A stretch of 64,000 nucleotides of DNA from Candidatus Taylorbacteria bacterium RIFCSPHIGHO2_12_FULL_45_16 (GCA_001821055.1 MHRT01000001.1:27868-91867); one strand, 5' to 3'; shown: positions 2,014-35,585, numbered from the stretch's first letter. Translations and numbers: made by a program. The notes: a model not told the origin generated them from the sequence alone.

Positions 2014-3360
2014 CTATAACATAGTTCTTACTTGGGTTATCTCTTGCGACAGTAATTGGTTAGTTTTTATTTCTTCACGCATTTTTTCGTATGAGTGAAT
2101 AACTGTCGTGTGGTCTCTTCCACCCAACTTTTCCCCAATTGACGGAAAAGAAATACCAAAATCTTCCCTTAATATATACATAACTACTTGACGAGGTCTC
2201 ACTACCTCCTTGCGTCTAGTTTTGTTGTATATACTTTCTTCGTCTATATTATAAAACTCAGAAACTATTTTCACCACATCCTTAACCGACACCATCTTTT
2301 TTGGTTTTAAGTTGTTTTTGAGAATATTGCGAATCTCGTTGAGGTTCAACTCTTTGTTTTTTAGTTGTATTTGGCAGGCAATAATATTGATTATACCCTC
2401 AATTTCACGGATATTGTCGTTGATTGATGTCGCGATACACTCAACCACCTCATCAGAAAGAGTTATTTTGTGTGGCCGGCACTTACTACGCACAATCATC
2501 ACTCGAGATTCTTGGTCGGGTTCCGGAATATCAACAATCATTCCCATGGAGAATCGGCCACGCAGGCGGTCTTCAAGGCCGGGGATGGTGTTGGGATGTT
2601 TATCTCCAGAAAAGACCAATTGGCGAGCAGTGTCATAGAATGTATTGAAGAAATGGAAAAGTTCCTCTTGAAACTTTTCTTTGTTCGCGAAAAATTGGAT
2701 ATCATCCATGATAATGACGTCATATTTACGGTATTTGTCTTTAAAAGCTTGAACCTTTCCCTCTTGAATAGCGGAAAACAATTCTGAACCAAAACGCTCA
2801 GATGTTAAATAAAATATTTTTTTATCGGGATGAAGCTTTTTTATCTCATTTCCCACAGCTTGAATTATGTGTGTTTTGCCACGACCAGTTTGTCCATAAA
2901 TGAAGAGAGGGTTGTATACTTGGCCCGGACTCTTTACAACCATTTGTGAAGCGGCGTGAGCCAACTCATTAAAAGGTCCCACCACAAGGCTCTCAAAAGT
3001 GTATCTAGGATTTAAGTTGTCTTCCTTGTTGATGTAGAAATCCTGTAACGGCATGGCGATAGTCGGAGCCTGAGACTGTTCTTTTCGTGTATTTTGGCCA
3101 CTTTTACCATCTTCTCGCACAATGACATATTCAAGCGCTCGTACATGCTCATTCATCTGCCTTAAAATGCGTAAAATTGAACTGTGGAACTTTTTTTGGA
3201 GCCATTCGTGGGTAAATGAGTTGGGAACACCGAGGTATATGGTACCTTCATCTTCACGCAGAATGCGGATATCTTTGAACCAGGTAGAAAAATTTGCTTG
3301 GGATACCGCACTTTCAATTTCTATTAGGGCAGTTTGCCACATTTTGCTGTGATCGTTCAT
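2014..3360 (-). CDS. dnaA: Chromosomal replication initiator DnaA
   Basis: The product carries a Walker A GQTGRGKTHI and the VDDIQF box. Its C-terminal DNA-binding domain (EKLGGRDHTTVIHSYEKM) matches the DnaA signature, and the length is 448 aa. Confidence 0.95.
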   Translation of the reverse strand: MNDHSKMWQTALIEIESAVSQANFSTWFKDIRILREDEGTIYLGVPNSFTHEWLQKKFHSSILRILRQMNEHVRALEYVIVREDGKSGQNTRKEQSQAPTIAMPLQDFYINKEDNLNPRYTFESLVVGPFNELAHAASQMVVKSPGQVYNPLFIYGQTGRGKTHIIQAVGNEIKKLHPDKKIFYLTSERFGSELFSAIQEGKVQAFKDKYRKYDVIIMDDIQFFANKEKFQEELFHFFNTFYDTARQLVFSGDKHPNTIPGLEDRLRGRFSMGMIVDIPEPDQESRVMIVRSKCRPHKITLSDEVVECIATSINDNIREIEGIINIIACQIQLKNKELNLNEIRNILKNNLKPKKMVSVKDVVKIVSEFYNIDEESIYNKTRRKEVVRPRQVVMYILREDFGISFPSIGEKLGGRDHTTVIHSYEKMREEIKTNQLLSQEITQVRTML

Positions 3361-3524: not shown

Positions 3525-3659
3525 ATGTCATTCACATACAAACCAAATAAACGCAAGCGCGCCAAGTCGCACGGATTTCGTGTTCGAATGAAAACAACCG
3601 CTGGACGAAAAACACTTGCGCGCCGTCGCTCAAAAGGCCGCAAGCGTGTTGCTGTCTAA
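3525..3659 (+). CDS. rpmH: 50S ribosomal protein L34
   Basis: The translation [44 protein letters not shown] (44 aa) is a classic L34. It is missing from the ORF track because it is shorter than 60 aa. Confidence 0.95.
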
Positions 3660-3672
3660 TTATAATTTCAAT

Positions 3673-4008
3673 ATGCTCTCTCGCTCCCGAAGACTTTCCA
3701 CGGAACAACTAGACTCTGTCATGAAAAAAGGAAAAATATCCCACTCTTCCCTTTTTTTGATGAGGGTATTTAGCGGACAGACAGATACACGGATAGCGGC
3801 CATTGCCCCAAAGAAGACAATCAAAATGTCTACAACTCGCAACGCCGTTCGTCGAAAAGTTTATAACGCAACCAAAACACTTATAAGAGAAATAATTCCC
3901 GGTACACACATCGCACTGTTCGCCAAACAGGCGACGACAAACGCAAAACTGGTCGATATAGAAAACAACATTAAAACTCTCTTTGTGAAAGCTGGGCTTT
4001 TAGGGTAA
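3673..4008 (+). CDS. rnpA: Ribonuclease P protein component
   Basis: This small basic protein follows rpmH, the canonical rpmH-rnpA-yidC order. I placed the start at the first ATG after the rpmH stop, because the track start at 3616 overlaps rpmH. Confidence 0.85.
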   Translation: MLSRSRRLSTEQLDSVMKKGKISHSSLFLMRVFSGQTDTRIAAIAPKKTIKMSTTRNAVRRKVYNATKTLIREIIPGTHIALFAKQATTNAKLVDIENNIKTLFVKAGLLG

Positions 4009-4060: not shown

Positions 4061-4825
4061 ATGTATCACACATTCATATTTTTGCCTCTATATAACGGTC
4101 TTGTTGGAATAATGGACATATTTCCATGGACAGATGTTGGTGTTGCGGTCATTATTTTCACAATTATCGTAAAATTGATTCTATTTCCTCTTTCGAAATC
4201 TTCAATTCTGACACAGGTCAGAATGAAAGAAATTGAGCCCGAGGCCAACAAAATAAAGACAGAATACGCCAATGATCGTCAGACTCAAACACTCAAGATT
4301 ATGGCCCTTTACAAAGCCAAAGGCGTCAAGCCATTTTCCGGTATTTTACTGCTTATTATTCAACTCCCCATACTTCTAGCTCTCATTTCAGTGTTTTATA
4401 AAGTTATTCCTTCTATAAATCCAGATTTTTTATACAACTTTATTTCAATGCCCGACATAACAAACAAAATACAGTTTCTTGGTCTCATTGATTTGACCGA
4501 AAAAAGCCTGATTTTGGCTCTTATCACTGGTGTAGCGCAGTTTTTTCAACTTCACTACTCTCTTGCCTCTCAAAAACCAGCAATCATTGCCGGCACCTCA
4601 AACACGAAAGGACTTATGAATCCCGACATGATGGCTTCAATGACCAAACAAATGAAGTTTTTCTTGCCAATACTCGCTTTTGCTTCGGTTTATTGGATCA
4701 TTCCAGCACAGTTTCCTCAAGCGGCTTCAATCATTGCTATTTACTGGACAGTTAGCACTCTTTTTACTCTAGGTCAGGAGTTGTATATTAGAAAGAGGTT
4801 TGTCGCGCGTTTAATTGTTAATTGA
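4061..4825 (+). CDS. yidC: Membrane protein insertase YidC/Oxa1 (short form)
   Basis: The 254-aa multi-TM protein carries the conserved Oxa1 core (KLILFPLS...QVRMKEIEPE...ALYKAKGVKPFSG). It sits downstream of rnpA. Confidence 0.85.
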   Translation: MYHTFIFLPLYNGLVGIMDIFPWTDVGVAVIIFTIIVKLILFPLSKSSILTQVRMKEIEPEANKIKTEYANDRQTQTLKIMALYKAKGVKPFSGILLLIIQLPILLALISVFYKVIPSINPDFLYNFISMPDITNKIQFLGLIDLTEKSLILALITGVAQFFQLHYSLASQKPAIIAGTSNTKGLMNPDMMASMTKQMKFFLPILAFASVYWIIPAQFPQAASIIAIYWTVSTLFTLGQELYIRKRFVARLIVN

Positions 4826-6151
4826 AACCAGATCCAGCGACCATAAAGACAGGTCGTTTTTGTTCATAAAGATAAGAAAACTATCTTTTTCGTCCAAACC
4901 GAGATTGAAAGCGTCAATCACACGGTCTGAGGTATCCACAATTGAAGAGACAAGATCAATTTCTCCGGTAATGGCGTTTATTCCCCAAATTTTGTCAACA
5001 AATGAAACTCTGCCAACGTACCAATCGTCCGGGTATGTGCCAGCAATGGGTTGTGAGGGTGCGGCGCAATAGACCATTTCTTTGTAGAAGTTGCCCCAGA
5101 CGCATTTGTCAGCCAAGGTGCGGACGATGGCATCAATCCCCTTCCCTTCGGAAATATTGAAAATACTGGAAATAATATTATTGGCATTGCCGGCCATTGA
5201 TAAAAATACACGCTTGGCGTCGGTGCTTACTTTTGTGCTTAATCCCGGTAGGGGACCAAGTATTTTTTTCCAAATGCCAGTTTTTGGGTCAATAAAATAT
5301 AGAAAACCACTCGAATCGGCGGCGCCTTTTGTAGTAATGGCAATCACATTTTCTGACGGCCACTCAACATTAACTTGGGTTATGGGCGTGGAAAATATTT
5401 TGACCACACTGGACCCGTCAAATTTGGCTGTATAGCCCGAGCCAGCACCGTTTTCGTTTATAAGAAAGAATATACGATCTCTCTTTGGTGAACTTGCGTA
5501 AGCGATAATATTTTCCGGTAAACTCTTGCCTTTTAGTTCGTATGGTGTGAGAGTGGCACCAGTTGTTTGGGAGACCGGTGATGTAGTGCTCGTGGCAATT
5601 TTTGGCACGATTCGGGCCTTTAGCTCAGCGTACACACCACCCGAGGTTCCACCTCGGTCAAAACCATCACCATCATCAAGTCCGAAGGCGATAAATCCAG
5701 TCAGATTCTTGTTCCAGGAGCTTTCGTACAATTTCGGCACGACCGTGTTTGATAACGTTACTATATCCAAGGTATTTCCACGCGCTTCATACACATTTCC
5801 TCTACCTCTATCAACCCAGCGGATAGCCGTTGTCGTGCTGGCTGGCTTGGCATTTACCGCCCCGGTAGTACTGGCGCCATATCCACCCGCCGGAGTATTG
5901 CTCAAAAGTCGTAGGGTAGGAATTTTGAGCTGTGTGCCAGGAGTTGCCGAGGTGGAACCTCGGTTATCACCCGGGACAGTTCCCTCTGTCCCCGTCACAA
6001 GACCTCCCCCAGGCCTATTGATTGGAACGAAGCCAGATTGAGGTGTCTCTGGTTCAAGTACAACATCAGTTCCTACACGCATGAAAAAATACCAGTAAGC
6101 CACGCCGGCTATAATGAGGAGGATGAAGAGTGTGAGGAGGAGTTTTTTCAT
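4811..6151 (-). CDS. Secreted or membrane-anchored hypothetical protein, first gene of the envelope cluster
   Basis: The product has an N-terminal TM/signal (MKKLLLTLFILLIIAGVAYWYF) and is Gly/Thr-rich. It contains two copies of the 17-nt palindrome, encoding NRGSTSA and DRGGTSG. Confidence 0.6.
   Translation of the reverse strand: MKKLLLTLFILLIIAGVAYWYFFMRVGTDVVLEPETPQSGFVPINRPGGGLVTGTEGTVPGDNRGSTSATPGTQLKIPTLRLLSNTPAGGYGASTTGAVNAKPASTTTAIRWVDRGRGNVYEARGNTLDIVTLSNTVVPKLYESSWNKNLTGFIAFGLDDGDGFDRGGTSGGVYAELKARIVPKIATSTTSPVSQTTGATLTPYELKGKSLPENIIAYASSPKRDRIFFLINENGAGSGYTAKFDGSSVVKIFSTPITQVNVEWPSENVIAITTKGAADSSGFLYFIDPKTGIWKKILGPLPGLSTKVSTDAKRVFLSMAGNANNIISSIFNISEGKGIDAIVRTLADKCVWGNFYKEMVYCAAPSQPIAGTYPDDWYVGRVSFVDKIWGINAITGEIDLVSSIVDTSDRVIDAFNLGLDEKDSFLIFMNKNDLSLWSLDLVSINN
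5641..5657. repeat. 17-nt palindromic repeat CCGAGGTTCCACCTCGG, copy 1
   Basis: Exact palindrome (7-bp stem, 3-nt centre), located inside the 4811..6151 CDS. Confidence 0.9.
5947..5963. repeat. 17-nt palindromic repeat CCGAGGTGGAACCTCGG, copy 2
   Basis: Exact copy in the opposite orientation to copy 1, in the same CDS about 290 nt away. Confidence 0.9.
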
Positions 6152-7446
6152 TTGTTATTTTCCCGGACTGAAAACTTTGCATTTATTAAATCTCGACTAT
6201 TTTTTAGTCTTTTTTGCAGATCTTTTTGTAACTCTGGGTCTTTGACATTACCCATCATTTGTTCTGCTGTACCAATATATTTGGCGAGCCTTGATTCAAG
6301 CTCTTTTTTTTCAAAAACCTCGCCGCTTCCCAAGAATACTGCGCTACTACCCACATAGGCAGTATTTTTTGAAAAAAGTCCAAATGTTGTATTTCCGACA
6401 ATTGTATCACTTCTATTTAGCTCAAGAACAGATTCGTAATAATTTGCCTGATCATTAATACCACCGTGATTATAAATTTCTTCCAATTGGTTTATTTTTG
6501 TTAGTTGACTATTTCCATCATCTCTTATTTTGTTTATTACTTCTTTTTGTTTATCAAACACCATATTTATTCCGGATAGATTTTTTGTAGTATCGTTATT
6601 TTCGAGATCAATAAAAGTTTGTTTTGATTGGGCCGCCAGAGACAATTTTGTTGCATTAACTACCAAGTTAGCTTTTTCCTTTGCAATTTCATAATCTTTA
6701 TTTTTTATTTCTGCAACTAATTCGTCAAATTCAGGGTCACCAATCTTATAATTATGTAATTGGGCCAGTAATGCATCTTGTTGTTTTTTTAAATCAGAGA
6801 CAATGGCCTGAGTTTGTTTTTGTTTTTCTGCTATACCTTGAATTTTAACCTGGTATTTTTCTAACTCAGCTGTAAGCTCATTAAAGAAACTACCAATATC
6901 TCCACTCTTACACCCAGGATCACCGATCGATATATCTGGATTATCTGCACATTGTATGATTATCGGCTCAACCAGATTTGTAGGTATAGCCACCAACCTC
7001 GGATCAATAGTCTTCAAAATTAGATATGAACACAAGACTAGTAACAAGCCGGAAATGGCATTTTGTAATTTTTTCAACCCGTCTTTTTTTCCAAGGAATG
7101 AATCAGAACTCATGTACTCAAATCCTCCCCAAACGATCATGAAGACCGCGGCCACGGCGGCCAAGGCAATCAATAAGTTGAACATATACTGGACATATCC
7201 TTGGAAATCAATTTCTCTGATTTGTGATTCAGAGCAAGTAACCGCGGGGATTTTGTTACCGTTTCCGTCTACGGTTTCTGGACTTTCTATACATGGCAAG
7301 GCTTCAAGAAGGGTGTATTTGTCAGGTGTTTGTGCTTGTGCCAGTGAGACATTTATCAAAAGAAATGACATGAATAGTGCGCACACGATAAAGACAAATA
7401 ACCCCCCTATTTTTTTTGTATGTGATGTAGAATTCATAAATAACAT
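6148..7446 (-). CDS. TrbC/VirB2-like pilin-domain protein with a C-terminal coiled-coil extension
   Basis: A signal peptide is followed by a Cys pair and then two hydrophobic helices (FNLLIALAAVAAVFMIVWGGF and ISGLLLVLCSYLIL), which is the conjugative-pilin topology. The C-terminal half is a long coiled coil. Confidence 0.45.
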   Translation of the reverse strand: MLFMNSTSHTKKIGGLFVFIVCALFMSFLLINVSLAQAQTPDKYTLLEALPCIESPETVDGNGNKIPAVTCSESQIREIDFQGYVQYMFNLLIALAAVAAVFMIVWGGFEYMSSDSFLGKKDGLKKLQNAISGLLLVLCSYLILKTIDPRLVAIPTNLVEPIIIQCADNPDISIGDPGCKSGDIGSFFNELTAELEKYQVKIQGIAEKQKQTQAIVSDLKKQQDALLAQLHNYKIGDPEFDELVAEIKNKDYEIAKEKANLVVNATKLSLAAQSKQTFIDLENNDTTKNLSGINMVFDKQKEVINKIRDDGNSQLTKINQLEEIYNHGGINDQANYYESVLELNRSDTIVGNTTFGLFSKNTAYVGSSAVFLGSGEVFEKKELESRLAKYIGTAEQMMGNVKDPELQKDLQKRLKNSRDLINAKFSVRENNK

Positions 7447-7452
7447 AAAAAA

Positions 7453-8544
7453 TTAGAACGTTGCAGTTTCATCTATTGAAGCTGTCTTGTTGGAAAATAT
7501 CGCAGAAAAACCAGCCGTTGAACCCTGGAGTATTTTATCAGTATTTTTGATGTTCAGCTGTATATTGGAGGATCCAGACGAACCTTCTGGCGCGCGCAAG
7601 ATGACTGATCTGTTTGATGATAATTCTGCCCGACTAAGATTGTTGATTGCCCATGCCCACGACAAATCATTATTACCAAGCGAATTGCCCACCCCACTGA
7701 AACCAAAAGGTACGGCCAACACGGTAACTTCTTTTTGTGTACCTATTCGGATTGATCCTTGTAGTGCGATATTAAACAACTTCCCGTACAACGGATCATC
7801 CACGTAAAAAGTTATGTATGGATTGCCGACGCTGACTTCGGAATACACTTGGGCGCTGGAACTATCATCGCGTGGCCAGATGGTCACGCTGATATCATAA
7901 GGCCGAGGCACAATGTCTCCTACTAGAGTGATGGATTGTTTGCCGTATCCACTCTGATTTTCTACGACACGGCTATTCTTTTTCCATTCATAAATAAGAG
8001 TTTTGGGGTCATATTCTACGCCAGAGACATTGGCTAGATGAGGAATGGCGATGATTTTGATCGAATTTTGATATACCGGGGCTACTTTACCTTTGAAAAA
8101 AGGCGGGACGTATCCATCGGTTTCCAATATAAGATCAATAGATCCGGAACCAAGTACCAGAGAGGACCCTACCATTCTGCCCTCCGGAGTGGTCGCCACG
8201 ACTTCCAAGGTTATTTTTTTGCCTATGGCAGGCGCGGTTATTTCAATAGTCGTGGCACCCACGGCATTTTGGGTGACTTTTCCGTTGACTGTCCAAGATA
8301 TTTTGGCGCTATTGATGTCAATGCTATAACTGCGGGCGGTAACTGTAATTTTCTGATTTGGGACTGGATTGTTGGTTGAGGCGGAGAGCTCCAGACCACT
8401 ACTGGATATGGGTATTTGGGCGAAGGCTGTTAGAGTAAACCCTCCTCCGCCAAGGCTACGGAGGGCAAGGAGACAAAAAGCAAAGATAAACAAAAAGCAA
8501 AGAAGATTAGAAAGTCTAAAAATCATAAAGAAACGAGATTTCAT
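7453..8544 (-). CDS. Secreted hypothetical protein (beta-rich)
   Basis: The product has a signal peptide and a Thr/Ser/Val-rich composition. It lies in the envelope cluster. Confidence 0.55.
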   Translation of the reverse strand: MKSRFFMIFRLSNLLCFLFIFAFCLLALRSLGGGGFTLTAFAQIPISSSGLELSASTNNPVPNQKITVTARSYSIDINSAKISWTVNGKVTQNAVGATTIEITAPAIGKKITLEVVATTPEGRMVGSSLVLGSGSIDLILETDGYVPPFFKGKVAPVYQNSIKIIAIPHLANVSGVEYDPKTLIYEWKKNSRVVENQSGYGKQSITLVGDIVPRPYDISVTIWPRDDSSSAQVYSEVSVGNPYITFYVDDPLYGKLFNIALQGSIRIGTQKEVTVLAVPFGFSGVGNSLGNNDLSWAWAINNLSRAELSSNRSVILRAPEGSSGSSNIQLNIKNTDKILQGSTAGFSAIFSNKTASIDETATF

Positions 8545-8608
8545 TAACTTTATTTTACCATGATAAAATTCTCGCGTCTCTTGGCTGATTCGGGGATAAA
8601 GAAATAGA

Positions 8609-9085
8609 TTAACGTGTCAAACCGCCACTTGACGCGCGTATACCGTCCTTGTTTATCCTAGAATTACCTATTTGTGTCTGAGATGAAGTTGATTGGCGTA
8701 TGCCATCTCTGTAAAGTGGTTGTCGAATTGTGTTACCCAACATCATTTCTCGTTCTTGTCTTGCTTGTTCGGCGGCCTCTTCTTTCTTTACATCACTATG
8801 AATATACCAGACATCAACAACCCAAAAAGGTGCTATTCCGCCGGTGATCGCATCGCCAAGAGCCAGTCCAAGCAGTGAAGCAATCCTTTTTGGTTTTGTA
8901 ATAATTGGAATCTTAAACAAAGAAAAAAGCCCGATCAAGGCAGGTCCGGTAACAACTTCCATGGCCTCACTTATAGCAATACCTATTCCAGTTAAATCAA
9001 TGAGAATTTGCACAATGTCAACTATTATTGCAAATCCATACAAAACAACCCAACGCATACTACTCTTTTTTTTAGTCTGCTCCAT
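8609..9085 (-). CDS. Small membrane protein
   Basis: The product has two to three hydrophobic helices. It lies in the envelope cluster. Confidence 0.5.
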   Translation of the reverse strand: MEQTKKKSSMRWVVLYGFAIIVDIVQILIDLTGIGIAISEAMEVVTGPALIGLFSLFKIPIITKPKRIASLLGLALGDAITGGIAPFWVVDVWYIHSDVKKEEAAEQARQEREMMLGNTIRQPLYRDGIRQSTSSQTQIGNSRINKDGIRASSGGLTR

Positions 9086-9103
9086 GGATATATTATAACT
9101 AAA

Positions 9104-10948
9104 CTACCCTGCCGCTTCTAACTGTTTCTTTGCATCTTGAATAGCCAGCACTTGAGCAGGGTTTGTCGTGATAATCTGATCCTCGGTATACGATCCGTGT
9201 ATCTTGATGGCCACGTGCTTCAATCCCACGAAGAATATTCCCTCTCCCACGTCAGACTCCAACAAGAGATATTTTTCCTCATCCGTCAGGTTAAATGTTT
9301 TTTGGATATGATCGATCACGCTTGGGGATTGTTTCAAAAGGATTTGTATTGAAGAGTTTGTCACTATCGGCAGGCCATAAGGCGAGTTCAAAAAGTCGTC
9401 AACATCTTGGGTGATTGTGGCCAAGCCGAGGAAATATTTGCGACCGCGCTTTGCCAAACCGAAGAGGAACGAAGCCGTGTCTTCTGATTTCATCATCCAC
9501 CACGCCTCATCTATGACCAACAAACGCTTCTTGAGGTTCTTGCGGATGGCATTCCAGATATAGTGAGTGACTATATACATGGCCACCGGTTTGAGCTCGT
9601 CTTCCATGTCGCGGAGTGAAAAAACCACGAATTTTTTATTTATATCCACATTTGAAGGACGATTGATGAAACCAGCCCAGGTTCCTTTGGTGTATTTACT
9701 CAAGCGCTGAACCAGTGAATCCCCCCCCTCCATTCCGGCCAGAACCAGTTCAAAATCGGACAGAAGTGGCGGTTCAACAGTCCGGAAATCCGATTCGGGA
9801 GTGATATCTTTCAAAGCGTAGGTTTCACTGATGGCCCGATCAACGATGGCATCTTCTTCTTGGGTAAGACCACCCAACATAATTCGGAAAAGACCGACCA
9901 AGTTGATGATATTTGATCGAAGGACGTCAGCAGCTGATTCGTCTTCACGGGCGATCGGCAAGTCAAATGGATTTATATGGTGTTCGGAATTGAGTGAGAT
10001 ATTGAAATATTTCCCTCCCGTGGCTTCGGCCATATACTCGTATTCTTTTTCTGGATCGATAACGATTACATCAGTGTCAAACATCAGCGTGCGCAGAATT
10101 TCCAGCTTGGTGGCATAAGATTTTCCGGCGCCGGCAGTGGCAAAAGTGACCGAATTGTAGTTTTCCAACGAAAATCTATCAAAAAGTACCAGGGACGAAT
10201 TGTGACGATTTATGCCGTACAAGATTCCTTTATCTGAAGTAAGGTCAAATGAGACGAATGGGAAAAGTGATGAAAGGGGCGAAGAGTTGAGCTTGGAATG
10301 CACCCCGAGCTGATCATCGGCGATGGGGATGACGGATTTGAAGCCTTGTTCTTGCTGAAACAGCGCGGGTTTAACGTAAATAAGTTTTGATTCAAGGATT
10401 GATTTGATTTCAGATTCCAACTTATCAAGCTCACCTTCCGAGTCGGCAAACAAAGTGATATAAACACCGACATCAAAAAGGTGTTCCTGCGCCTGCATCA
10501 GTTGATCACGGAGCTGTTCCAGATCTTGATAAGCCGTATCCAATGCCGGATCACGGACCAGCCCCTTGTCTTCCCTGCGAGAAATCTGGCTTTGGACTTC
10601 GGCGACTTTCTTTTGGAAATGGCGGAGGATTTTTGCCGTTTCGACGGGATGTATGAATATTGAAATATTAAAAATCTTGTCTAGATTGATGATAGGGGCA
10701 AACCAGCTTTCGTCAAGGAAGCGTGGATATGAGATTACAAAGAGAGTTCGGCCTATTTTTTCTCCCAAATTGAGATCCTTTGGGCTAATTTTTAGAGCTG
10801 ACGGAGAAATAACATCTTTCAATTCCAAAACGCCGGCTTGATAGATCTCTTCAGGTAAAATAGAAACAATCGGTGATTGCTCATCTTTTCGTCCAAATAA
10901 TTTGTTTAAGAATGACATGTTGATTTTGTGTTGGTTCTGCGTATTCAT
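9104..10948 (-). CDS. VirB4/TrbE/TraC-like conjugation ATPase, C-terminal ATPase part (split gene)
   Basis: The product has a Walker A TAGAGKSY and a Walker B LLVIDEAWWMM. I placed the start at the ATG at 10946-10948 (MNTQ...). The track start, a GTG at 10984, falls inside a hairpin. Confidence 0.8.
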   Translation of the reverse strand: MNTQNQHKINMSFLNKLFGRKDEQSPIVSILPEEIYQAGVLELKDVISPSALKISPKDLNLGEKIGRTLFVISYPRFLDESWFAPIINLDKIFNISIFIHPVETAKILRHFQKKVAEVQSQISRREDKGLVRDPALDTAYQDLEQLRDQLMQAQEHLFDVGVYITLFADSEGELDKLESEIKSILESKLIYVKPALFQQEQGFKSVIPIADDQLGVHSKLNSSPLSSLFPFVSFDLTSDKGILYGINRHNSSLVLFDRFSLENYNSVTFATAGAGKSYATKLEILRTLMFDTDVIVIDPEKEYEYMAEATGGKYFNISLNSEHHINPFDLPIAREDESAADVLRSNIINLVGLFRIMLGGLTQEEDAIVDRAISETYALKDITPESDFRTVEPPLLSDFELVLAGMEGGDSLVQRLSKYTKGTWAGFINRPSNVDINKKFVVFSLRDMEDELKPVAMYIVTHYIWNAIRKNLKKRLLVIDEAWWMMKSEDTASFLFGLAKRGRKYFLGLATITQDVDDFLNSPYGLPIVTNSSIQILLKQSPSVIDHIQKTFNLTDEEKYLLLESDVGEGIFFVGLKHVAIKIHGSYTEDQIITTNPAQVLAIQDAKKQLEAAG

Positions 10949-10954
10949 GTTGTC

Positions 10955-11026
10955 ATTCCGGCGAAGGCCGGAATCCAGAATCACAAACTAAGTGTTAGTA
11001 ATTCTGGACCCCTGCCTTCGCAGGGG
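10955..11026. repeat. 72-nt element of three consecutive hairpins at the VirB4 split site
   Basis: The three hairpins are ATTCCGGC-GAAG-GCCGGAAT, CCAGAAT-N19-ATTCTGG and CCCCTGC-CTTC-GCAGGGG. The element contains the in-frame TGA at 11033-35 and a TAG. Confidence 0.7.
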
Positions 11027-11032
11027 TGACAA

Positions 11033-11671
11033 TCAGGTGATCTGTATCGGTTTCTCCGTTTCTCCTGGATTGAAGAGTTTGTAGAACAATTCTACCACTT
11101 CTTCGGTACCAAGTTCCGCCGCTCGAACCCCACAACGCACCAAACCTTGCTCTACAACAGCCACCCTTTGCTCGAGTTGGCTTCTGTACTCTTGGAATTG
11201 CGTGTCGGCCGTAGCAGTTTTGTCTGTGGCGCTCTTTTTGCCTCCAAACATGCTAGAAAGTGGATTTTTACCGCCGATGATTGGCGGATCGTATGGTATA
11301 ACCACAAAGAAACTTTTGGACATGATGTTGGTGCTTTCGACGAATGTTTTGATGAATTCTATGTATTCGCGAACCTGTATTTTCATGAGCTCGGTGGTTT
11401 GTTCTTTGTACCTATCCTCAAGAAGGGCGATATATGGTCTGATATCAAGTTTTTTTGATTGGACGAAGATTTGTATGGAAAAATCAAGCGAGTTCACGAA
11501 ATTCTGGAATTGCATCAAAATGGAACTTTGTTCATCTTGGGATTTGAGGGCGAAGTTGAGGGAAGATGCCAAAATGATGGCACGCATGCCTCCGTTTTTC
11601 AAAATGATTACGCCGTCGCGGATTTCTTGAATAGGAATGAAGTCTTGAGTTGTTGATTGTTTTGGAGCCAT
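11033..11671 (-). CDS. VirB4-like N-terminal domain (split gene, N-terminal part)
   Basis: The N-terminus DFIPIQEIRDGVIILKNGGMRAIILASSLNFALKSQDEQ follows the VirB4 N-domain pattern. This ORF is in the same frame as the downstream ATPase ORF, separated from it by two stop codons. Confidence 0.65.
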   Translation of the reverse strand: MAPKQSTTQDFIPIQEIRDGVIILKNGGMRAIILASSLNFALKSQDEQSSILMQFQNFVNSLDFSIQIFVQSKKLDIRPYIALLEDRYKEQTTELMKIQVREYIEFIKTFVESTNIMSKSFFVVIPYDPPIIGGKNPLSSMFGGKKSATDKTATADTQFQEYRSQLEQRVAVVEQGLVRCGVRAAELGTEEVVELFYKLFNPGETEKPIQIT

Positions 11672-12108
11672 TATTTTTGGTTTTTATTTGAATACATGCT
11701 CTCTTTTATATCCAGACTCCATGTCAGGTCCTTCAGTTTGCTGTCGGAAATTTTCGGCACCATGACGGAAGCGTAATTTTCGGCGTCTTTGACGGCCGTG
11801 GCGGTATTTTGCGGGCTTTGTTTTTCGGCTTTTCTCCAGATGTAAAGTTTACCACCAAGATAGTATTTGAAAGCTGATTCAACGACATGAACAAATGGTT
11901 TGTTATTTACTTTGTAGAAAGCAAAAGCGGCGGATACGGCCATGATGAGGATAATAGGCACGATGGCGAGGGTTATGCTGTTCAGGAACACATACACCAT
12001 GAAAGAAAGTCCTCCTCCGCCAGCAAGATAAATGAACTGCTTCAAGGTAAGCGGTCCGAATATTTTGTCTTCAACCTCAATGAATTGGGGAACCTGGAAT
12101 CGCATCAC
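11671..12108 (-). CDS. PrgI/VirB3-like small membrane protein
   Basis: The N-terminus FQVPQFIEVEDKIFGPLTLKQFIY is followed by two TM helices, the PrgI-family pattern. It overlaps the start of the VirB4 N-terminal ORF. Confidence 0.55.
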   Translation of the reverse strand: MMRFQVPQFIEVEDKIFGPLTLKQFIYLAGGGGLSFMVYVFLNSITLAIVPIILIMAVSAAFAFYKVNNKPFVHVVESAFKYYLGGKLYIWRKAEKQSPQNTATAVKDAENYASVMVPKISDSKLKDLTWSLDIKESMYSNKNQK

Positions 12109-12285
12109 TGGATATTATAGCGACAAGTGAGGATTTATGAAAGCGAGCAACCCGCGAGCAAATGTAGCTGCGAGCGGAGCCGTCCTCGGATGAGGGCTTT
12201 CATAAGATCTGAATGCAGTTGCTATATGAGCGAAGCGATTATAGCGTACTTTTGACTTAAACGAGGATAGGTCCAGCTCAAATAT

Positions 12286-13110
12286 TTACTTGATCGCTTC
12301 CCTATATGGATCATTACCCATAGCTTTTGGTGTTGGTGTACCACTAGTTCCCCCTGCCACTTTTGGAGCTTGAACGGTGACTTTTTGCGCTGACTGCCCG
12401 CTCGCATTGCCTAACAAGTAATCTACCAGTGGCTCTGTGTGGTTCTCGGGTGTCCCCCCGGAAGTTGTTTTCGCCACCGCAATTTTCGGCACTTGTGGAG
12501 CTACCACGGCTTCAGGCATCTGTGCTGATCTTCCATCTGTCGGTAGATTTGCCGGTGGATTTGCCCTAGATGGTGTAACTCTTGCCGGAGGGATCCCCGC
12601 CTGAGTCGGAACACTTGCTGGTGGATTTTCCAACCCCGCCAGTATTTCCCCTCTATCCGCCGCGGTCACCCTATTATTTTCCGTTTCCGGAACCTCTTTT
12701 TCAACACTAAAGCCGCCGAGACGTTCTAGAGAAGAGAGGGTGGAAATTTGGTTTTCTTCAGGCCTAGATTCTGGAACAGTGGTTTGAATACCATCCTCGG
12801 TTTCCCGAAGGTATTCTTTTATAGAATCAAAGACCTCATGATTTACCTCTTGGGAAATGGTTAGCGCAGCTTTACCAGAAATATTAAGCCGTTTAGAAAT
12901 TTGGTCAACAAAATCAGAAGATTTATGAAGTCCAAGTAAAACCAATCCTATTTCATCAACAAGCTCGCCCAGCTGATCGATCATGAGACCATATTTTTTT
13001 CCTACAATCTCGATTTTCTCGTGGATTTCAGGCGAAGTCACTGCCTGTTGAACATTAACAGGTAATTTATCGAACTGTGCTTTTATTTCTTCTGAAGTAA
13101 ATTGCCTCAT
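12286..13110 (-). CDS. Hypothetical Pro/Thr-rich protein
   Basis: This 274-aa ORF has a low-complexity Pro-rich C-terminal half. It lies in the envelope cluster. Confidence 0.45.
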   Translation of the reverse strand: MRQFTSEEIKAQFDKLPVNVQQAVTSPEIHEKIEIVGKKYGLMIDQLGELVDEIGLVLLGLHKSSDFVDQISKRLNISGKAALTISQEVNHEVFDSIKEYLRETEDGIQTTVPESRPEENQISTLSSLERLGGFSVEKEVPETENNRVTAADRGEILAGLENPPASVPTQAGIPPARVTPSRANPPANLPTDGRSAQMPEAVVAPQVPKIAVAKTTSGGTPENHTEPLVDYLLGNASGQSAQKVTVQAPKVAGGTSGTPTPKAMGNDPYREAIK

Positions 13111-13155
13111 GTTGTTTTTGATGCGTCTTTATCTTCCTTTGGTTTATCCTCAGCA

Positions 13156-15021
13156 TCATCCTTGCTTGCTTCGGCCAATTCTTTTGCCAATTTTTTCATA
13201 TTCTTTATCTTTCTTTTTTCCAGAACCACGTTTGATTGCAGCATCCAGGTCTGCTATCTTTCTTCGTAATTGTTCGAGTTCAGCTTTTTCTGCGTCAGTT
13301 ACAGTAGCCCCTCCTTCAGCCTCACGTCTAAGCAGATATTTATAGTTGTTTGAATTCAAAATCCCGTCTTTTTCATCTCTATTCTTTTGGAGATCCGCCT
13401 CATCTTTCAAACTGAACGCAGTTTCGGTATTAGCGCGATCTTTCATAAGAAGGGTCATTATTGATCTACGCGGTAAGTTCTCGCGGAATTTTGTAGCATA
13501 ATCTTTTGCTTGAGCACTCGCAACTTCCCTCTCTGCTTCAGTCGCATAATCACTGTTATTTATGGATTCAATTCGTTTATGCTGACCCCCAATATCCTTC
13601 TTCCTCTGCTTCAATACTGCATCATAACTTCCTTTTTTGTCACCAAATCCAGCTCCGCTAACATTTGAAAGTCCTTTTGAAACTGCCAAGCCGAGGTTTG
13701 GGTTATTCCCATAAAATCTTCGAGCTGCTGAACTTTCGTTAATACGATTTGCGGCCATTCCAAGAGTATTCCTTCCGCCCCAACTACCCACCTTCTTCCA
13801 TAACACATCAGCACCCATCTTTTTGCCATCAAGTAGACCACCTGTACTCGCTCCAAGTTTGATTGCCGCCACGAGGGGGACATTGAGCATGAAGATAATG
13901 AGAACGGCATTGATGGCGAATGAAACGAATTCCGTTGGCATGATTCCAGTCGTGCCTGTTCCTTGCCATAAGGTGCCGTAGGCTCCGGTATTGAATAAAC
14001 TACTGCCGGTTATTATTTTGAGCGCAACATACATCAATAATAAGTATGCCGGCATGAAGGTGAGTTGGGCGATTAATATTTTCCAGTATTCTTTTGAATA
14101 TTCCTGCAATTGCGGGACAACCGCCGCCGCACACCAAACAGGCGAAAAGGCGAGCAGTAAGAGGAGAAGAACTAAACGTACAACGAAAGCCAAGGCGGCA
14201 AAGAGGAAACTCAAACCAGCTGTTACCATTATGACAACGCCAGTGATGCCGATGAGCACGATCCGAAATGGCGTCATTCCAGTTGAACTTTCATTGCCAG
14301 TAAGGTTTAGGTTGTCAGGATGAAAAGCTGTTTGTATTTGCAGTGATTGCATGAAAATTGCTGATAGCCCACCATCTTTGAACAAAGTATTTACTATGGT
14401 TGGCAATGTACCAGCCTGAGCAAGTGTGCCTGTTGCACCTTGTTTTCCTTGAATTATGGCACCAATATCCGGTTGCCCAGGAGTGATCGCTTTATATAGC
14501 TGCAGTGAAACAACATTCGAAGTGTCGATCAAAAGCGCGGTTATAAAAAAGCTAAAGTTGATCAATACACCGGCGATGACGATGTTTTTTATGACACCAC
14601 TTAGCTTTGCGTCTTGACCTAAAATCATACGGATGGACGCGTATAAAAGAGCAAATATGATGAACATGCCGGTAATATCGCGGATGGCCTTCCAAACAGT
14701 ATATATGGCGGGAGTACTATCAACGAAATCTTTGATATGCATTGTCAGATTGATCGAGACATTGAGGAGTGTACCGGTAAGCGCCACGAACCACGAGGCT
14801 ATTGATAAAATTATGTTGACAATGAATGCCGCGGCTTGAGCAAAAAAGTCCCAGATACTGCTGATCCCAAATAGTTCTATCGCATGTGTCGTTTGCGTCG
14901 AAGCAACCACGATGACCAGCATAACAATGGTGAAATGACTTATGTATTTCCAAGTAAAAATACGAGATATTATCAGCGGTATATCAATCAATCTGATTTT
15001 TTTAATATATGATTTCAACAT
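13156..15021 (-). CDS. Polytopic membrane protein, possibly VirB6/TrbL-like
   Basis: The 621-aa product has many TM helices and a Lys/Arg-rich C-terminal tail. It lies next to the VirB4 and VirB3-like genes. Confidence 0.4.
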   Translation of the reverse strand: MLKSYIKKIRLIDIPLIISRIFTWKYISHFTIVMLVIVVASTQTTHAIELFGISSIWDFFAQAAAFIVNIILSIASWFVALTGTLLNVSINLTMHIKDFVDSTPAIYTVWKAIRDITGMFIIFALLYASIRMILGQDAKLSGVIKNIVIAGVLINFSFFITALLIDTSNVVSLQLYKAITPGQPDIGAIIQGKQGATGTLAQAGTLPTIVNTLFKDGGLSAIFMQSLQIQTAFHPDNLNLTGNESSTGMTPFRIVLIGITGVVIMVTAGLSFLFAALAFVVRLVLLLLLLAFSPVWCAAAVVPQLQEYSKEYWKILIAQLTFMPAYLLLMYVALKIITGSSLFNTGAYGTLWQGTGTTGIMPTEFVSFAINAVLIIFMLNVPLVAAIKLGASTGGLLDGKKMGADVLWKKVGSWGGRNTLGMAANRINESSAARRFYGNNPNLGLAVSKGLSNVSGAGFGDKKGSYDAVLKQRKKDIGGQHKRIESINNSDYATEAEREVASAQAKDYATKFRENLPRRSIMTLLMKDRANTETAFSLKDEADLQKNRDEKDGILNSNNYKYLLRREAEGGATVTDAEKAELEQLRRKIADLDAAIKRGSGKKKDKEYEKIGKRIGRSKQG

Positions 15022-15029
15022 GTGATTTG

Positions 15030-16784
15030 TCAGTATGAACTCAAGAGATTATTTTTGAAGGTTTCGGGCTGGATGATTAGGTTGGGGAATTGGTTGCACC
15101 TATTCTGGAAGATCTGGGCGTCTCTGTTCAGATCCTTGACGGTTTCTTCGATTGACTGGGATCTTTGTTCTATATTGTTTGAATCCTCGAGAACGGATTG
15201 GGTAGTTTGGGTTGTATTATTGACCGCCATTTCCAAACGTGAGAAGCCGGCAGTAATGTCGCTACCAGTTAGTCCTGGAATATATGAATTGGTAGTTCCT
15301 GAAGTCGAGTTCTTATACATATTCAGTTGGTTTTGTGTGGAAATTTTCTTTTCTGTTGTTGAAGCAATAAGCGGATCTATATTCCTAGTAATCACGAGAC
15401 TTATACCTTGGGTCATTTTTTCTCCGTATGATCGGCGGACGGTATCAAAGTTTTGTAGCTGATTTATCTTGTTGACGAAACATACACTGGCAGTCAGATA
15501 TCTGTTTTTTGTGTCATTGAGAAGTGCCAATGAACGGTTATACGCGGTGATGTTGTTCTCTGCAATAGTAATCACGGAATTTGAGGTACTCAACGAACGA
15601 TCCCGCGCCGAAACCACCTCAAAACTATTTTGATTGTATGATTCATCGTACAATTGGGTTAGGTATGACTGGGAATTTCCACCGACACCCGATCCTCGAT
15701 TGCTCAAGGCTGCCAGTCCTTGGGTCAACATCTGATTTACCAAGGCCCCGGTGATCGCATCAATGCTGTCGCTGATGGTTTTGACGCTGACTAGTTTTTC
15801 TCGGCCGGTATCCGCCTGATTGAATAACGTGCTGGCGATGACTGACCCGGGAGTTTGAACTTCACAACTTTCGTACTTTACTTTGTTGTCCTTGTCCACG
15901 GTCTTTTTTATACTTGTACCTTTGCCGAGAGCCGTGTAGCCTGTAGCACCGGTGCCGGTTTGCTGAAGATTTCTGATATCCGATGTGTTAAGGCCGAACT
16001 TTGGGCCAAGTTCATCTTCGGTGGCCGAAAGATAACCACTTGTCACATCTGTACATTTTGGCCAAGAAAGGAATCCCTGCCCGCGGTTGAGGTCGCTGTT
16101 GACGGAGTCTTGTTTTTCGGCAATCCGACTCTGAAGATCGGAATTCGCCAACAAATATGCCCCGATTGGATTGTTTTGCGGTTCAATCGTATAGGCCAAA
16201 AAGCCTTCCCAGCCACCTTGAGAGAAATCGCCGTTTATAAAATTGCCCAAAGTAGCACCGTCCGCGTCACCATACAGATTGATCCCGCTGTTTTGTCCCG
16301 CAGTCGCGATGGCATTTTGCGTATTGCCAATGACTCTGCTTAAGGTACATTCGTATCGTTTGTTATACGAGCTTGATTGATTCAAAGCGATATTCAGGCG
16401 AATATCGAAGCTGAACGGCGAACAAAGTTGTGACAACGCGCCTGTTTTATCTATAAGTTCGCCGGTAATCTGATCAGCGACATCAAGGAAAAATCCTTCG
16501 GGATTGGTCAGAAAAGCCGGACTACCTTGAAAACCGGTATTTATCCAATTCACAATACTGGCAGTCATGCGTTGGATGATCTGATTGGTGATGAGGACTG
16601 CTAGACGATTACCGACAAATTCTTTCCAGTTGTCCATGATGCAGTAAAAATCGAATAGTGCACAGGTATTTGGAACGGCCAGTGCCTGGGCTTTTTTGTT
16701 TGGAATAAAACCAAGTGGTGACACTAGGATGGCGATGAGTATGGTGAGTGTGATTATACGAATGCGGATGGAGTGAATATTCAT
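15030..16784 (-). CDS. Secreted hypothetical protein
   Basis: The 584-aa product has a signal peptide (ILIAILVSPLGFIPNKKAQA) and is Asn/Ser/Thr-rich. Confidence 0.55.
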   Translation of the reverse strand: MNIHSIRIRIITLTILIAILVSPLGFIPNKKAQALAVPNTCALFDFYCIMDNWKEFVGNRLAVLITNQIIQRMTASIVNWINTGFQGSPAFLTNPEGFFLDVADQITGELIDKTGALSQLCSPFSFDIRLNIALNQSSSYNKRYECTLSRVIGNTQNAIATAGQNSGINLYGDADGATLGNFINGDFSQGGWEGFLAYTIEPQNNPIGAYLLANSDLQSRIAEKQDSVNSDLNRGQGFLSWPKCTDVTSGYLSATEDELGPKFGLNTSDIRNLQQTGTGATGYTALGKGTSIKKTVDKDNKVKYESCEVQTPGSVIASTLFNQADTGREKLVSVKTISDSIDAITGALVNQMLTQGLAALSNRGSGVGGNSQSYLTQLYDESYNQNSFEVVSARDRSLSTSNSVITIAENNITAYNRSLALLNDTKNRYLTASVCFVNKINQLQNFDTVRRSYGEKMTQGISLVITRNIDPLIASTTEKKISTQNQLNMYKNSTSGTTNSYIPGLTGSDITAGFSRLEMAVNNTTQTTQSVLEDSNNIEQRSQSIEETVKDLNRDAQIFQNRCNQFPNLIIQPETFKNNLLSSY

Positions 16785-16785
16785 G

Positions 16786-17676
16786 TTATTTGATTATAGA
16801 AAAAACTATGGCTGGCTCTTGAGATGAAAATTGCATGTCTTGCTGTGCGAATACAAATTTTAGATCTAGGAGTGCACTTCTTAGCCGACCAACGGATTGC
16901 TCGTAGAGTGCCATTGCAACCATTCCTTGAATTGGGTCGCTAAATACTTTACTCATTCCATTGGAAACGAATGACATAGCACTGACAGCATTGATCAATT
17001 CAACATGATGCGGGGCTAGGTTTTTGGGAGTTCTAGTAGCAAGCAATTGCGCTAACAATGTGTCATATGAGACTGTGACATCTTCTATTTTTTTGGCGGC
17101 GAATTTGTCATTCTGTTCGAGCGCTTGATTTGCGATTGAGGCGGCGTCTTCTCGTGGCGTATATGTCAAAATTAACCTGCCAATGTTGTTTGCATAGGCT
17201 CGCTCGGCCGATGCGTCTGTTTCTGTCGACAATACTATTTCACGAACATCATATGAACGTGGCAATGGCGCCGCCGATACGACATTTTCTGTGGTTTGGT
17301 CAATAAGCGCTTTTATTGCTTCGGGATTTTCGGATAGATTGTTCTGCTTGAGAAATAAATACTGTTCAAAAAATTTCTTGCCGAACTGGCCGGTGACGGT
17401 TTCCGGTTCAACCGGTTCATTGGAAGTCACGGCGGTGATATCCGATGATTTGTTCTCGTTGATTTTTTGGGTCAAAAATTGTTCTTTCCAATCATTGGAA
17501 TTCGTCTCGGAAACTAGCTCTGTGGGCGTAGCACTGACCACCCCGTTCGGAGCGTTATTTATGGCCGTGTTATTCCACAATGAATCGCCGTACGCGGCAT
17601 ATCCAGCGACTCCAACTCCCAGAATACATATTATGAAAATGATAGCCGTCTGTTTGTGCCGGTAAGATAGGGACAT
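16786..17676 (-). CDS. Membrane-anchored hypothetical protein
   Basis: The product has an N-terminal TM helix. It is the last gene of the cluster. Confidence 0.5.
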   Translation of the reverse strand: MSLSYRHKQTAIIFIICILGVGVAGYAAYGDSLWNNTAINNAPNGVVSATPTELVSETNSNDWKEQFLTQKINENKSSDITAVTSNEPVEPETVTGQFGKKFFEQYLFLKQNNLSENPEAIKALIDQTTENVVSAAPLPRSYDVREIVLSTETDASAERAYANNIGRLILTYTPREDAASIANQALEQNDKFAAKKIEDVTVSYDTLLAQLLATRTPKNLAPHHVELINAVSAMSFVSNGMSKVFSDPIQGMVAMALYEQSVGRLRSALLDLKFVFAQQDMQFSSQEPAIVFSIIK

Positions 17677-18168: not shown

Positions 18169-19098
18169 CTAGTTTAATGAATTGTATCCGGCAATCTCAA
18201 GCCACTGTTCCACTTTCAGATCCTCTGCTCTTATTTTTGGATCCAGTCCCAGTTTTTTCCAGATAGCTTCAATCCCCATTTGACCAAAAATCACTTCCAA
18301 ATTTCGGGCCAAGAACTTTCTTTTGTGAGCGAAACTGGTTTTCACTAGTCTGAAAAATCTAGGAATATCAAGGTCTTTTGAGACATCGGGGAAATTTTTC
18401 GCGCGGAAAAGGTTGTCTGAAATATTCTCAATTGAAAGAATTGCCGAATCGACTGTGGGTGGTGGAGTGAATGCTCCCGGCGGAACCTCGGCAATTATTT
18501 TCGGTGTCCCAAAAGCTTTTACTGATATGGATAGTACACTTTCTTTATCATCTCTAGCAACGATCCTTTGAGCAACCTCTTTTTGGACCAATAGAACCAT
18601 TCGATTTGGTCTCGGTTCATATTCGAGAAACTTTTCTAAAATTGCTCCAGTGATGTAATAAGGAATATTGGCGACGAGTGCATATTTGGATGATTCCAAA
18701 ATTAAGCAATTTAATGATCCCGAGTGTGAAGGTTTAATGATTGAATCATTTGATGATTCAGGATTTTCAGATGAACTATTTTCGGATAATTGATCGGATT
18801 TGATTTTAGTTTTTAATATATTCGGATCCAACACATCCCCTTCAATGATTTTTAATGTTCCACTTTTTATTTCATTGAAAAAATCTTGCTCCAACATACC
18901 GACGGCTCGAGAATCTTTTTCAATTGCTATGACATTTGCTCCGGCATCCAATAATGCGCGCGTCAAAACTCCAGTGCCGGGTCCAATTTCAAGTACTGAC
19001 TCCCCTTTTTGTATGTGCGCGGCCAAAATAATCTGCCTCAACACATGCGTAGAGTTCAAAAAATGTTGCCCCAGAGATTTTTTTGCGAATAATTTCAT
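18169..19098 (-). CDS. rsmA: 16S rRNA (adenine1518/1519-N6)-dimethyltransferase
   Basis: The product carries the SAM motif VLEIGPGTGVLT and a KsgA-type N-terminus. It contains a low-complexity SENSSSENPESSNDS insert. Confidence 0.85.
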   Translation of the reverse strand: MKLFAKKSLGQHFLNSTHVLRQIILAAHIQKGESVLEIGPGTGVLTRALLDAGANVIAIEKDSRAVGMLEQDFFNEIKSGTLKIIEGDVLDPNILKTKIKSDQLSENSSSENPESSNDSIIKPSHSGSLNCLILESSKYALVANIPYYITGAILEKFLEYEPRPNRMVLLVQKEVAQRIVARDDKESVLSISVKAFGTPKIIAEVPPGAFTPPPTVDSAILSIENISDNLFRAKNFPDVSKDLDIPRFFRLVKTSFAHKRKFLARNLEVIFGQMGIEAIWKKLGLDPKIRAEDLKVEQWLEIAGYNSLN

Positions 19099-21109: not shown

Positions 21110-21407
21110 TTGGTTAGTGTATCAGAAAAACTCAAGATGGACCCATAATTGTTACAAATTTATCCTTAGTCAGTTTAATTATTGGTTTGAATATTCATAC
21201 TTTTTGTCACATTACTTGACATTAGAGCAAGTTTTGTGACTGTGTATATCTGTTATTGACAATGCTTCTCTACCTGCTACTCTGGATAAGTACCCTAACT
21301 GGTATATGTGCTAATGTGGCTTTACAGAGCCACTTATGCTTTATAACTGGGGGCACCGCGCGAAGGACAGACTGCCATGGTTGACTTGCAGAAGTGAGAT
21401 ATATGTT

Positions 21408-32405: not shown

Positions 32406-32481
32406 TTTTTTGAGCTGGAACCTTGGCGTTTGGAAATTTTTCCCTCTTCCCTTATTTCCCTCTTTCCTTCATACTATCCCC

Positions 32482-33297: not shown

Positions 33298-33397
33298 TTT
33301 TTCAATTATGTCGCTATCTCATTCTTACCTTGTAGTTTTTTGAAATCTAGTTGTCTAAATCCCAAACTCTGTCGCGTTACTCCAATCCATCTAGAAA

Positions 33398-35524: not shown

Positions 35525-35585
35525 CTTGGGATTTTCCGCTAACTAAGCTAGTATGTAGAAGTTACGCTCGCACAAAATAATATAC

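Follow-up and report, generated by a model that had tools for sequence, protein, structure and literature searches.

A cluster of 11 genes lying beside dnaA in a Candidatus Taylorbacteria genome (Paceibacteria/Parcubacteria) is, with a probability of about 0.82, a Patescibacteria-type chromosomal type IV secretion system (T4SS), a monoderm, MPF_FATA-derived machine that is inherited vertically and forms no part of a conjugative element. The stretch of DNA analysed, hereafter the window, comprises 64,000 nt, and the source genome was viewed within these 64 kb. The cluster consists of 11 minus-strand open reading frames (ORFs) at 4811-17676, with intergenic gaps of -4 to 177 nt, and is flanked by rpmH-rnpA-yidC on one side and by ksgA-uvrD on the other. 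Five of the 11 genes encode T4SS components (PrgI/VirB3, VirB4, a TrsD-like protein, a VirB6-like protein and a VirB2-type pilin-domain protein), and the remaining six are without family. VirB4 is not the sole T4SS homologue of the cluster, as PrgI/VirB3, the VirB2-type pilin domain, the VirB6-like protein and TrsD were each supported.

An earlier reading, made from the sequence alone (the sequence-only reading), had described 11 co-oriented genes directly following rpmH-rnpA-yidC and coding for signal-peptide or membrane proteins. The ORF calls agree with this layout, and transmembrane (TM)-like hydrophobic segments, N-terminal or internal, were present in 8/11 proteins, the other three being cytoplasmic. 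Neither extra small conserved ORFs nor further pilin genes were found in the gaps of the cluster, matches in alternate frames were dismissed as mere nucleotide conservation of virB4 and trsD, and a promoter and terminator scan gave counts at shuffle level. Relatives were taken from a one-genome-per-species scan that returned 592 tblastn-confirmed VirB4 relatives, of which the best 80 by VirB4 similarity (L001-L080) were used; these loci belong to metagenome-assembled genomes (MAGs) labelled Paceibacterota, Parcubacteria, Patescibacteria, uncultured Saccharibacteria or only "bacterium". The features of the cluster, from the first gene to the last and all on the minus strand, are the following:

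16786-17676, minus: g1, bitopic membrane protein of 296 aa with a TM segment at about 10-28 and an ectodomain rich in helices; opens the cluster
15030-16784, minus: g2, signal/anchor protein of 584 aa; N-terminal domain conserved and Cys-containing, C-terminal part a long three-helix bundle
13156-15021, minus: VirB6-like membrane protein of 621 aa, polytopic (about 7 TM-like segments), with a charged helical C-terminal tail
12286-13110, minus: g4, cytoplasmic, 274 aa; helical domain (about 100 aa), Pro/Ala/Thr-rich linker and C-terminal G-x-DPYRE-x-I
11671-12108, minus: PrgI/VirB3-family small membrane protein, 145 aa (PF12666)
11033-11671, minus: TrsD-like protein, 212 aa, stand-alone homologue of the VirB4 N-terminal domain, from hidden Markov model (HMM) matches
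10948-11035, minus: 88-nt near-perfect palindrome in the trsD-virB4 spacer, resembling a dispersed repeat of the REP/MITE type (repetitive extragenic palindrome/miniature inverted-repeat transposable element)
9104-10918, minus (listed ORF to GTG 10984): VirB4 ATPase, monoderm CD1110/MPF_FATA-like, from HMM, PDB and motif evidence
8609-9085, minus: g8, 158-aa small membrane protein with at least 2 TM segments, fast-evolving
7453-8544, minus: g9, secreted protein of 363 aa, Ig-like in at least one domain
6148-7446, minus: VirB2-type pilin-domain protein, 432 aa (PF18895)
4811-6151, minus: g11, 446-aa membrane-anchored protein; last gene, its 3' end overlapping the end of yidC by 15 nt

Candidate T4SS components

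The VirB4 protein matched the NCBIfam model of the CD1110 family (NF045971) with 366 bits (cut-off 325) over model positions 180-733. P-loop_TraG and AAA_10 (PF19044, PF12846) were likewise above cut-off, and PDB entry 4AG5, deposited as a VirB4-component-like protein, was matched with 6.6e-39. The Walker A (GAGKS285) and Walker B (LLVIDE488) motifs are intact and were conserved in 80/80 orthologues. Since the alignment of the relatives to the listed ORF begins at residue ~22, the start codon is probably ATG 10918 rather than GTG 10984. The adjacent TrsD-like ORF matched the first 100-230 residues of VirB4 models (NF045975, 5.8e-11; TrsD, NF041427, 2.5e-6), and NCBIfam holds a model for stand-alone TrsD/TraD family conjugative-transfer proteins. 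Because trsD and virB4 were separate ORFs in 80/80 related loci, ending in all three stop codons and lying in mixed relative frames, the split is not a frameshift. The sequence-only reading had recognised a VirB4 ATPase, which NF045971 and the Walker motifs confirmed; it had counted one gene where there are two and had overlooked the gene for the TrsD-like N-domain.

In the spacer between the two genes, the 88-nt palindrome is predicted to form an RNA hairpin of -52.1 kcal/mol (z -9.1). It occurs once in the window and, among the loci compared, was seen only at the locus of this genome, the spacer of most relatives measuring a few to ~30 nt. Its 31-nt arm was found in 7 unrelated metagenome contigs without T4SS genes, twice as inverted pairs. 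Judged by its sequence and occurrence, the palindrome represents the insertion of a dispersed REP/MITE-like element, and it could affect the coupling of trsD and virB4 expression.

The product of prgI, which abuts trsD-virB4, matched PF12666 with 48.8 bits (Pfam cut-off 27, E 1e-12) and was 46-81% identical across the relatives, in line with the PrgI/VirB3-like assignment made earlier. For the polytopic protein encoded at 13156-15021, sub-threshold TrbL/VirB6 matches spanning nearly the full model were obtained in 7/52 orthologues and in two further homologues. We accept the protein, with its ~7 TM-like segments, as VirB6-type at moderate strength. An AlphaFold model built from 118 homologues had a mean predicted local distance difference test (pLDDT) of 82; its top Foldseek match was TrwI, with a non-significant E of 0.38, and a profile of the full VirB6 alignment run against PDB sequences gave nothing useful, the matches being dominated by the low-complexity C-terminal tail. 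An identical protein (100%) is encoded by a Candidatus Taylorbacteria MAG. The VirB2-like pilin domain of the ORF at 6148-7446, the sole pilin-domain ORF in the window, was recovered by PF18895 (T4SS_pilin) in 47/47 orthologues (best 4.7e-10), the protein of the window itself remaining below threshold.

Conservation and inheritance of the locus

The neighbourhood into which the cluster is set comprises the following genes:

708-1814, minus: dnaN
2014-3360, minus: dnaA
3525-3659, plus: rpmH
3616-4008, plus: rnpA
4061-4825, plus: yidC
18169-19098, minus: ksgA
19145-21109, minus: UvrD/PcrA helicase

The genes dnaA, dnaN, rnpA, rpmH and ksgA all lie within 5 kb of the ends of the cluster and are kept in the relatives. 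As regards the claim that the cluster adjoins the replication origin, the position of dnaA and dnaN, a few DnaA-box-like sites and a shallow skew minimum speak in its favour, the origin itself being putative. Synteny in related genomes, as judged from tblastn-matched genes, proved tight: the order uvrD-ksgA-[11 genes]-yidC-rnpA-dnaA-dnaN was collinear in 79/80 species-level loci, and the block bordered yidC and ksgA in 79/80 genomes. The GC content of the cluster (0.433) is close to that of the rest of the window (0.437), and its tetranucleotide distance falls within the range of the window. From this collinearity and native composition it follows that the cluster is a vertically inherited chromosomal machine and not a mobile element.

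VirB4 is the most conserved protein of the neighbourhood. Its identity was 77-98% across the 80 species loci and exceeded that of DnaA in 49/49 loci and that of UvrD in 42/42, a comparison somewhat biased by the ranking of the loci by VirB4 similarity. Among the 33 fully covered loci, which carry some ascertainment bias, the median identity was 85% for VirB4, 59% for DnaA, 55% for UvrD and 53% for DnaN. The 77-98% identity to relatives labelled Patescibacteria, compared with at most 36% to plasmid proteins, indirectly suggests membership of the Patescibacteria VirB4 clade.

Among the ~50 larger ORFs scanned across the window, none contained a relaxase domain or a domain of a type IV coupling protein (T4CP; VirD4/TcpA). 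No integrase adjoins the cluster, the nearest recombinase being Xer-like (31452-32405) and 14 kb away, and the tRNA genes of the window are at least 18 kb from the block. The sequence-only reading had noted the absence of relaxase, coupling protein and integrase and had favoured a chromosomal machine over a mobile conjugative element, and both statements hold. The Xer-like gene itself opens an interval (31452-38167) in which it is followed by an Exo_endo_phos nuclease and then by four tRNA genes (Arg-tcg, Gly-gcc, Pro-tgg and Gly-tcc) amid small ORFs without assigned function.

Several observations weigh against the identification as a Patescibacteria-type T4SS. In the window protein PF18895 reached 22.2 bits, below its cut-off of 26.6, all TrsD HMM scores were below the curated cut-offs, and the VirB6-like protein had no HMM match at all. 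At 432 aa, the pilin-domain protein is far longer than a classical VirB2 and may be a membrane-anchored surface protein instead of a filament subunit. Sequence searches (Pfam, NCBIfam, PDB) gave no signal of a VirB8-like (NTF2-fold) protein among the cluster proteins, and no VirB1-like cell-wall hydrolase is present among the 11 genes. The source genome may also carry a T4CP or relaxase gene beyond the 64 kb viewed; VirD4 homologues are found in most Patescibacteria genomes, far from virB4 (PMC12102498). Finally, essentiality has been demonstrated only in Saccharimonadia, a class other than Paceibacteria (S. epibionticum, PMC10633639).

Accessory proteins and the pilin module

The six proteins without family differ widely in how far they could be traced. 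For g1, no significant match was found in Pfam, NCBIfam or PDB sequences; a protein search returned 24 close homologues, 44 positional orthologue ORFs were present in the 80 related loci, and a role as a VirB8-like protein, for which g1 is the candidate by position, had no sequence support. In g2, the residues C121, C146, C244, C307 and W80 and a TPGS311-314 motif were invariant in 112 homologues, of which the named ones are all "hypothetical" proteins from Patescibacteria/Paceibacterota. Its AlphaFold2 model had a mean pLDDT of 71.7, with values above 90 over most of 400-580, a region covering three long helices at 388-565. The Foldseek matches in PDB were generic BAR or three-helix bundles, none of them below E 0.03, and g2 as a VirB5-like protein or known fold was rejected on this ground; DUF4141, matched in two homologues, was dismissed because the match is located on the signal-peptide region.

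The g4 protein has no TM segment and no Pfam, NCBIfam or PDB match. D267, Y269 and E271 are invariant and R270 is nearly so, and an ORF with a C-terminal DP[YF]RE was present in 55 related loci, just upstream of prgI where its position was inspected. The family is large (3004 representatives at E<=1e-3), with the DPYRE tail in 88 of the best 150, and some homologues carry tandem copies of the ~100-aa domain. The idea that N-terminally extended homologues are PrgI fusions was rejected: none of the top 150 was matched by an HMM of PrgI orthologues, and the extensions are tandem g4 domains. From its sequence, the C-terminal peptide behind a disordered linker looks like a docking tail, and g4 could be a hitherto unrecognised adaptor that docks on the ATPase complex through the DPYRE peptide, in place of the absent coupling protein.

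Nearer the 3' end of the cluster, g8 had no Pfam or NCBIfam match, and its sequence was matched in 13 loci only; by position, however, a counterpart of 90 aa or more with two or more TM-like segments was present in 54/67 loci. The g9 protein has a signal-like N-terminus and weak Ig-fold PDB profile matches, and BiPBP_C (best 1.2e-6) and Ig_3 were each found in 5/50 orthologues. The g11 protein carries an N-terminal TM segment, and its profile matched TolB beta-propellers weakly (~12 TolB chains, best E 0.0085), with DPPIV_N in 2/52 orthologues; its ectodomain is probably a beta-propeller. A possible stand-in for the absent VirB1 lies beyond uvrD, 3.7 kb upstream of the cluster and on the opposite strand:

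21336-22472, plus: secreted LysM-LysM-Peptidase_M23 hydrolase (PF01551, 3.8e-32; PF01476, 1.7e-23)

VirB1-like proteins containing M23/LysM have been noted in Patescibacteria (PMC12102498). Here, most relatives gave no match to the gene in their +/-10 kb flanks, and it is a candidate at most for membership of the system.

In the pilin-domain protein, a signal peptide and a two-helix pilin domain (approximately residues 88-147) are followed by a hydrophilic C-terminal extension of 280 aa. The sequence-only reading had taken this extension for a long coiled coil; this found no confirmation in a crude heptad score, which is not a validated predictor and whose observed maximum was reached by 349/500 shuffles. 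Throughout this lineage the pilin-domain gene bears a long C-terminal extension (210-483 aa in total) of variable content. The window has a helical, hydrophilic module, L036 (13913-14848) a 3D domain above cut-off, and L071 (15011-16309) and L055 (12946-13791) gave CHAP- and Peptidase_M15_4-like matches below cut-off. This variability suggests that the module is a surface-displayed cargo on a pilin-type anchor, in which case VirB4 and VirB6 may handle the conserved two-helix domain bearing an exchangeable C-terminal module. That the pilin gene codes for a modular surface-display protein and g4 at the same time for an adaptor docking through DPYRE is a doubtful combination, to which we give little weight; neither idea is described in PMC10633639 or PMC12102498. 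If surface display were true, the T4SS would present or deliver the pilin C-terminal module at the host cell wall.

Elsewhere in the window, another unannotated envelope protein of 496 aa (24511-26001, minus) with a Pro/Gln-rich N-terminal half, one TM-like stretch and no Pfam match is flanked by a DksA/TraR-like small protein and PNPase. An AbiEii-type nucleotidyltransferase toxin (41276-42553, plus; PF08843, 1.4e-22) is preceded by a 203-aa ORF without family, the two (40668-42553) probably forming a type IV toxin-antitoxin or abortive-infection pair. A membrane H+-pyrophosphatase (51120-53117, minus; 913 bits) adjoins a 286-aa ORF (50124-50984, minus) that matched only the C-terminal end of the serpin fold, at cut-off (27.1 bits).

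Function and relation to known systems

The cluster, its proximity to the origin and its missing relaxase have already been published for other Patescibacteria (PMC10633639, PMC12102498). In Southlakia epibionticum ML1, the origin-proximal T4SS cluster SEML1_0006-0019 (Wang et al. 2023, PMC10633639) has the order VirB6-like, PrgI, TrsD-like, VirB4, encodes PF18895 pilins, lacks recognisable coupling or relaxase proteins and is essential for epibiotic growth. A survey of 3,035 genomes found VirB4 in 2,417, with a Patescibacteria clade nested in MPF_FATA (Quinonero-Coronel et al. 2025, PMC12102498). According to this survey, TrsD, PrgI/VirB3, VirB6 and VirB2-like pilins are encoded near Patescibacteria virB4, relaxases are nearly absent, and the neighbours of the Paceibacteria T4SS are dnaA, dnaN, rnpA, rpmH and ksgA. 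A 2025 review restates this picture and speculates on a pilus-like conduit (PMC12857230).

The present locus shares with these systems its chromosomal position near dnaA, the core order VirB6-PrgI-TrsD-like-VirB4, the lack of a relaxase or T4CP in the cluster, a PF18895 pilin domain in a monoderm and an Ig-like exported protein downstream; the TrsD homologue beside virB4 and the dnaA/dnaN/rnpA/rpmH/ksgA setting are both traits of the Patescibacteria T4SS (PMC12102498). The S. epibionticum cluster contains an array of six short pilins and two giant VirB6-like proteins, besides a lysozyme-like and an NTF2-like (VirB8-like) one. The present locus, by contrast, encodes one pilin-domain protein, of 432 aa and with a long module, no recognisable VirB8 or VirB1, and an accessory set of its own (g1, g2, g4 with its DPYRE tail, g8 and the propeller-like g11).

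When compared with MPF_FATA conjugative T4SSs (the CD1110-family systems of Clostridia, Prg/Pcf of pCF10 and Trs of pGO1/pSK41), the locus resembles them in a VirB4 that passes the CD1110 equivalog cut-off, in the lack of outer-membrane core genes, in a PrgI gene directly upstream of the ATPase gene, as in the Clostridium perfringens plasmid NZ_CP143494, and in a TrsD-type N-domain protein encoded on its own, a feature that PMC12102498 reports for the pGO1 subclass. It differs from them in that its VirB4 is at most 36% identical to any plasmid VirB4, its chromosomal position is fixed and it has no recognised relaxase, MobC, VirD4, SLT/CHAP hydrolase or topoisomerase; on the C. perfringens plasmid, whose VirB4 is of the nearest kind (33% identity), MobC, a relaxase, VirD4, an SLT hydrolase and a topoisomerase surround PrgI-VirB4. 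Gram-positive systems lack a VirB2-type pilin domain (PMC12857230), which is present here. Unlike in the Gram-negative VirB/Trw systems (R388), no VirB5, VirB7-VirB10 or VirB11 was recognised, the similarity to VirB6 and VirB2 is marginal and the envelope is monoderm. ComB of Helicobacter pylori and archaeal Ced are likewise chromosomal VirB4-based machines that serve the cell itself, with no relaxase or T4CP at the locus; no specific similarity to them was found beyond VirB4, and competence of S. epibionticum proceeds through ComEC and type IV pili (PMC12857230).

As to function, the sequence-only reading had proposed DNA uptake or cell-cell contact, a speculation that the literature shares (PMC12102498, PMC12857230). 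We tentatively favour, at somewhat short of even odds, a host-contact and translocation device without a relaxase or locus-linked T4CP, which would move proteins or host-derived macromolecules between epibiont and host and not plasmid DNA. From established T4SS biology, VirB4 (with TrsD) would dock on PrgI/VirB3 and VirB6 at the membrane, and its use of ATP would extract the Sec-inserted pilin-domain protein from the membrane. With VirB6 as the platform, the extracted protein might then be built into a surface filament or conduit, and the lineage-specific envelope and cytoplasmic proteins (g1, g2, g4, g8, g9 and g11) would substitute for the wall-spanning and contact parts of classical systems.

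Alternatively, the cluster may be an import machine, like ComB or Ced, that brings host DNA, nucleotides or other macromolecules into a cell unable to make them. Relaxase and T4CP are absent at the locus, and ComB-type uptake systems function without either. The import of DNA or other macromolecules is also the view favoured by the authors of PMC12102498, and VirB4 matched the CedB model NF041017 weakly (2.5e-8), far below its cut-off of 700 bits. Sequence alone, however, gives no direction of transport, a DNA-binding or -processing protein was recognised in none of the 11 genes (Pfam, NCBIfam), and S. epibionticum takes up DNA via ComEC and type IV pili, its comEC being dispensable and its T4SS essential (PMC10633639, PMC12857230). 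We regard import as unlikely, while still a serious competitor.

A working conjugation system, with its T4CP and relaxase encoded elsewhere in the genome, is far less probable. The genome was inspected over 64 kb only, and the remote VirD4 homologues mentioned above would be compatible with such an arrangement; relaxases, however, occur in just 103/3,035 Patescibacteria genomes, and the t4cp homologue of S. epibionticum is not essential whereas its T4SS genes are (PMC12102498). The position at the side of dnaA in 79/80 species and a VirB4 identity above that of DnaA fit a housekeeping machine, and conjugation is unlikely because both a relaxase and a locus-linked T4CP are absent.

Strongly disfavoured is the notion of a decayed integrated conjugative element (ICE) whose remnant lies near the origin by chance. 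The VirB4 family is otherwise typical of Firmicute/Actinobacterial plasmids and ICEs, VirB4 looks "split", and hydrolase, T4CP and relaxase are missing; yet 11/11 ORFs are intact, the catalytic motifs are kept in all 80 orthologues, the two-gene arrangement of TrsD and VirB4 recurs in every one of the 80 loci, stand-alone TrsD/TraD proteins have an NCBIfam model of their own, and the syntenic, compositionally native block has no flanking integrase and no tRNA gene nearby. A generic envelope cluster with VirB4 as its only T4SS-related member, to which 6/11 proteins without family and the sub-threshold or absent scores of the window pilin and VirB6 might point, is refuted by the support for PrgI/VirB3, the VirB2-type pilin domain, the VirB6-like protein and TrsD.

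With the Patescibacteria-type chromosomal T4SS as the preferred identification, the details that go beyond PMC10633639 and PMC12102498, namely the conservation of VirB4 above that of DnaA, the variable pilin module, the DPYRE tail and the palindrome insertion, are of minor novelty and leave the known picture unchanged. The locus provides a well-resolved Paceibacteria reference with a conserved 11-gene layout that could guide structural and genetic work. The Patescibacteria T4SS mixes a Gram-positive-type core with Gram-negative-type pilins, and through it a very large proportion of the uncultured bacteria may draw their food from their hosts.

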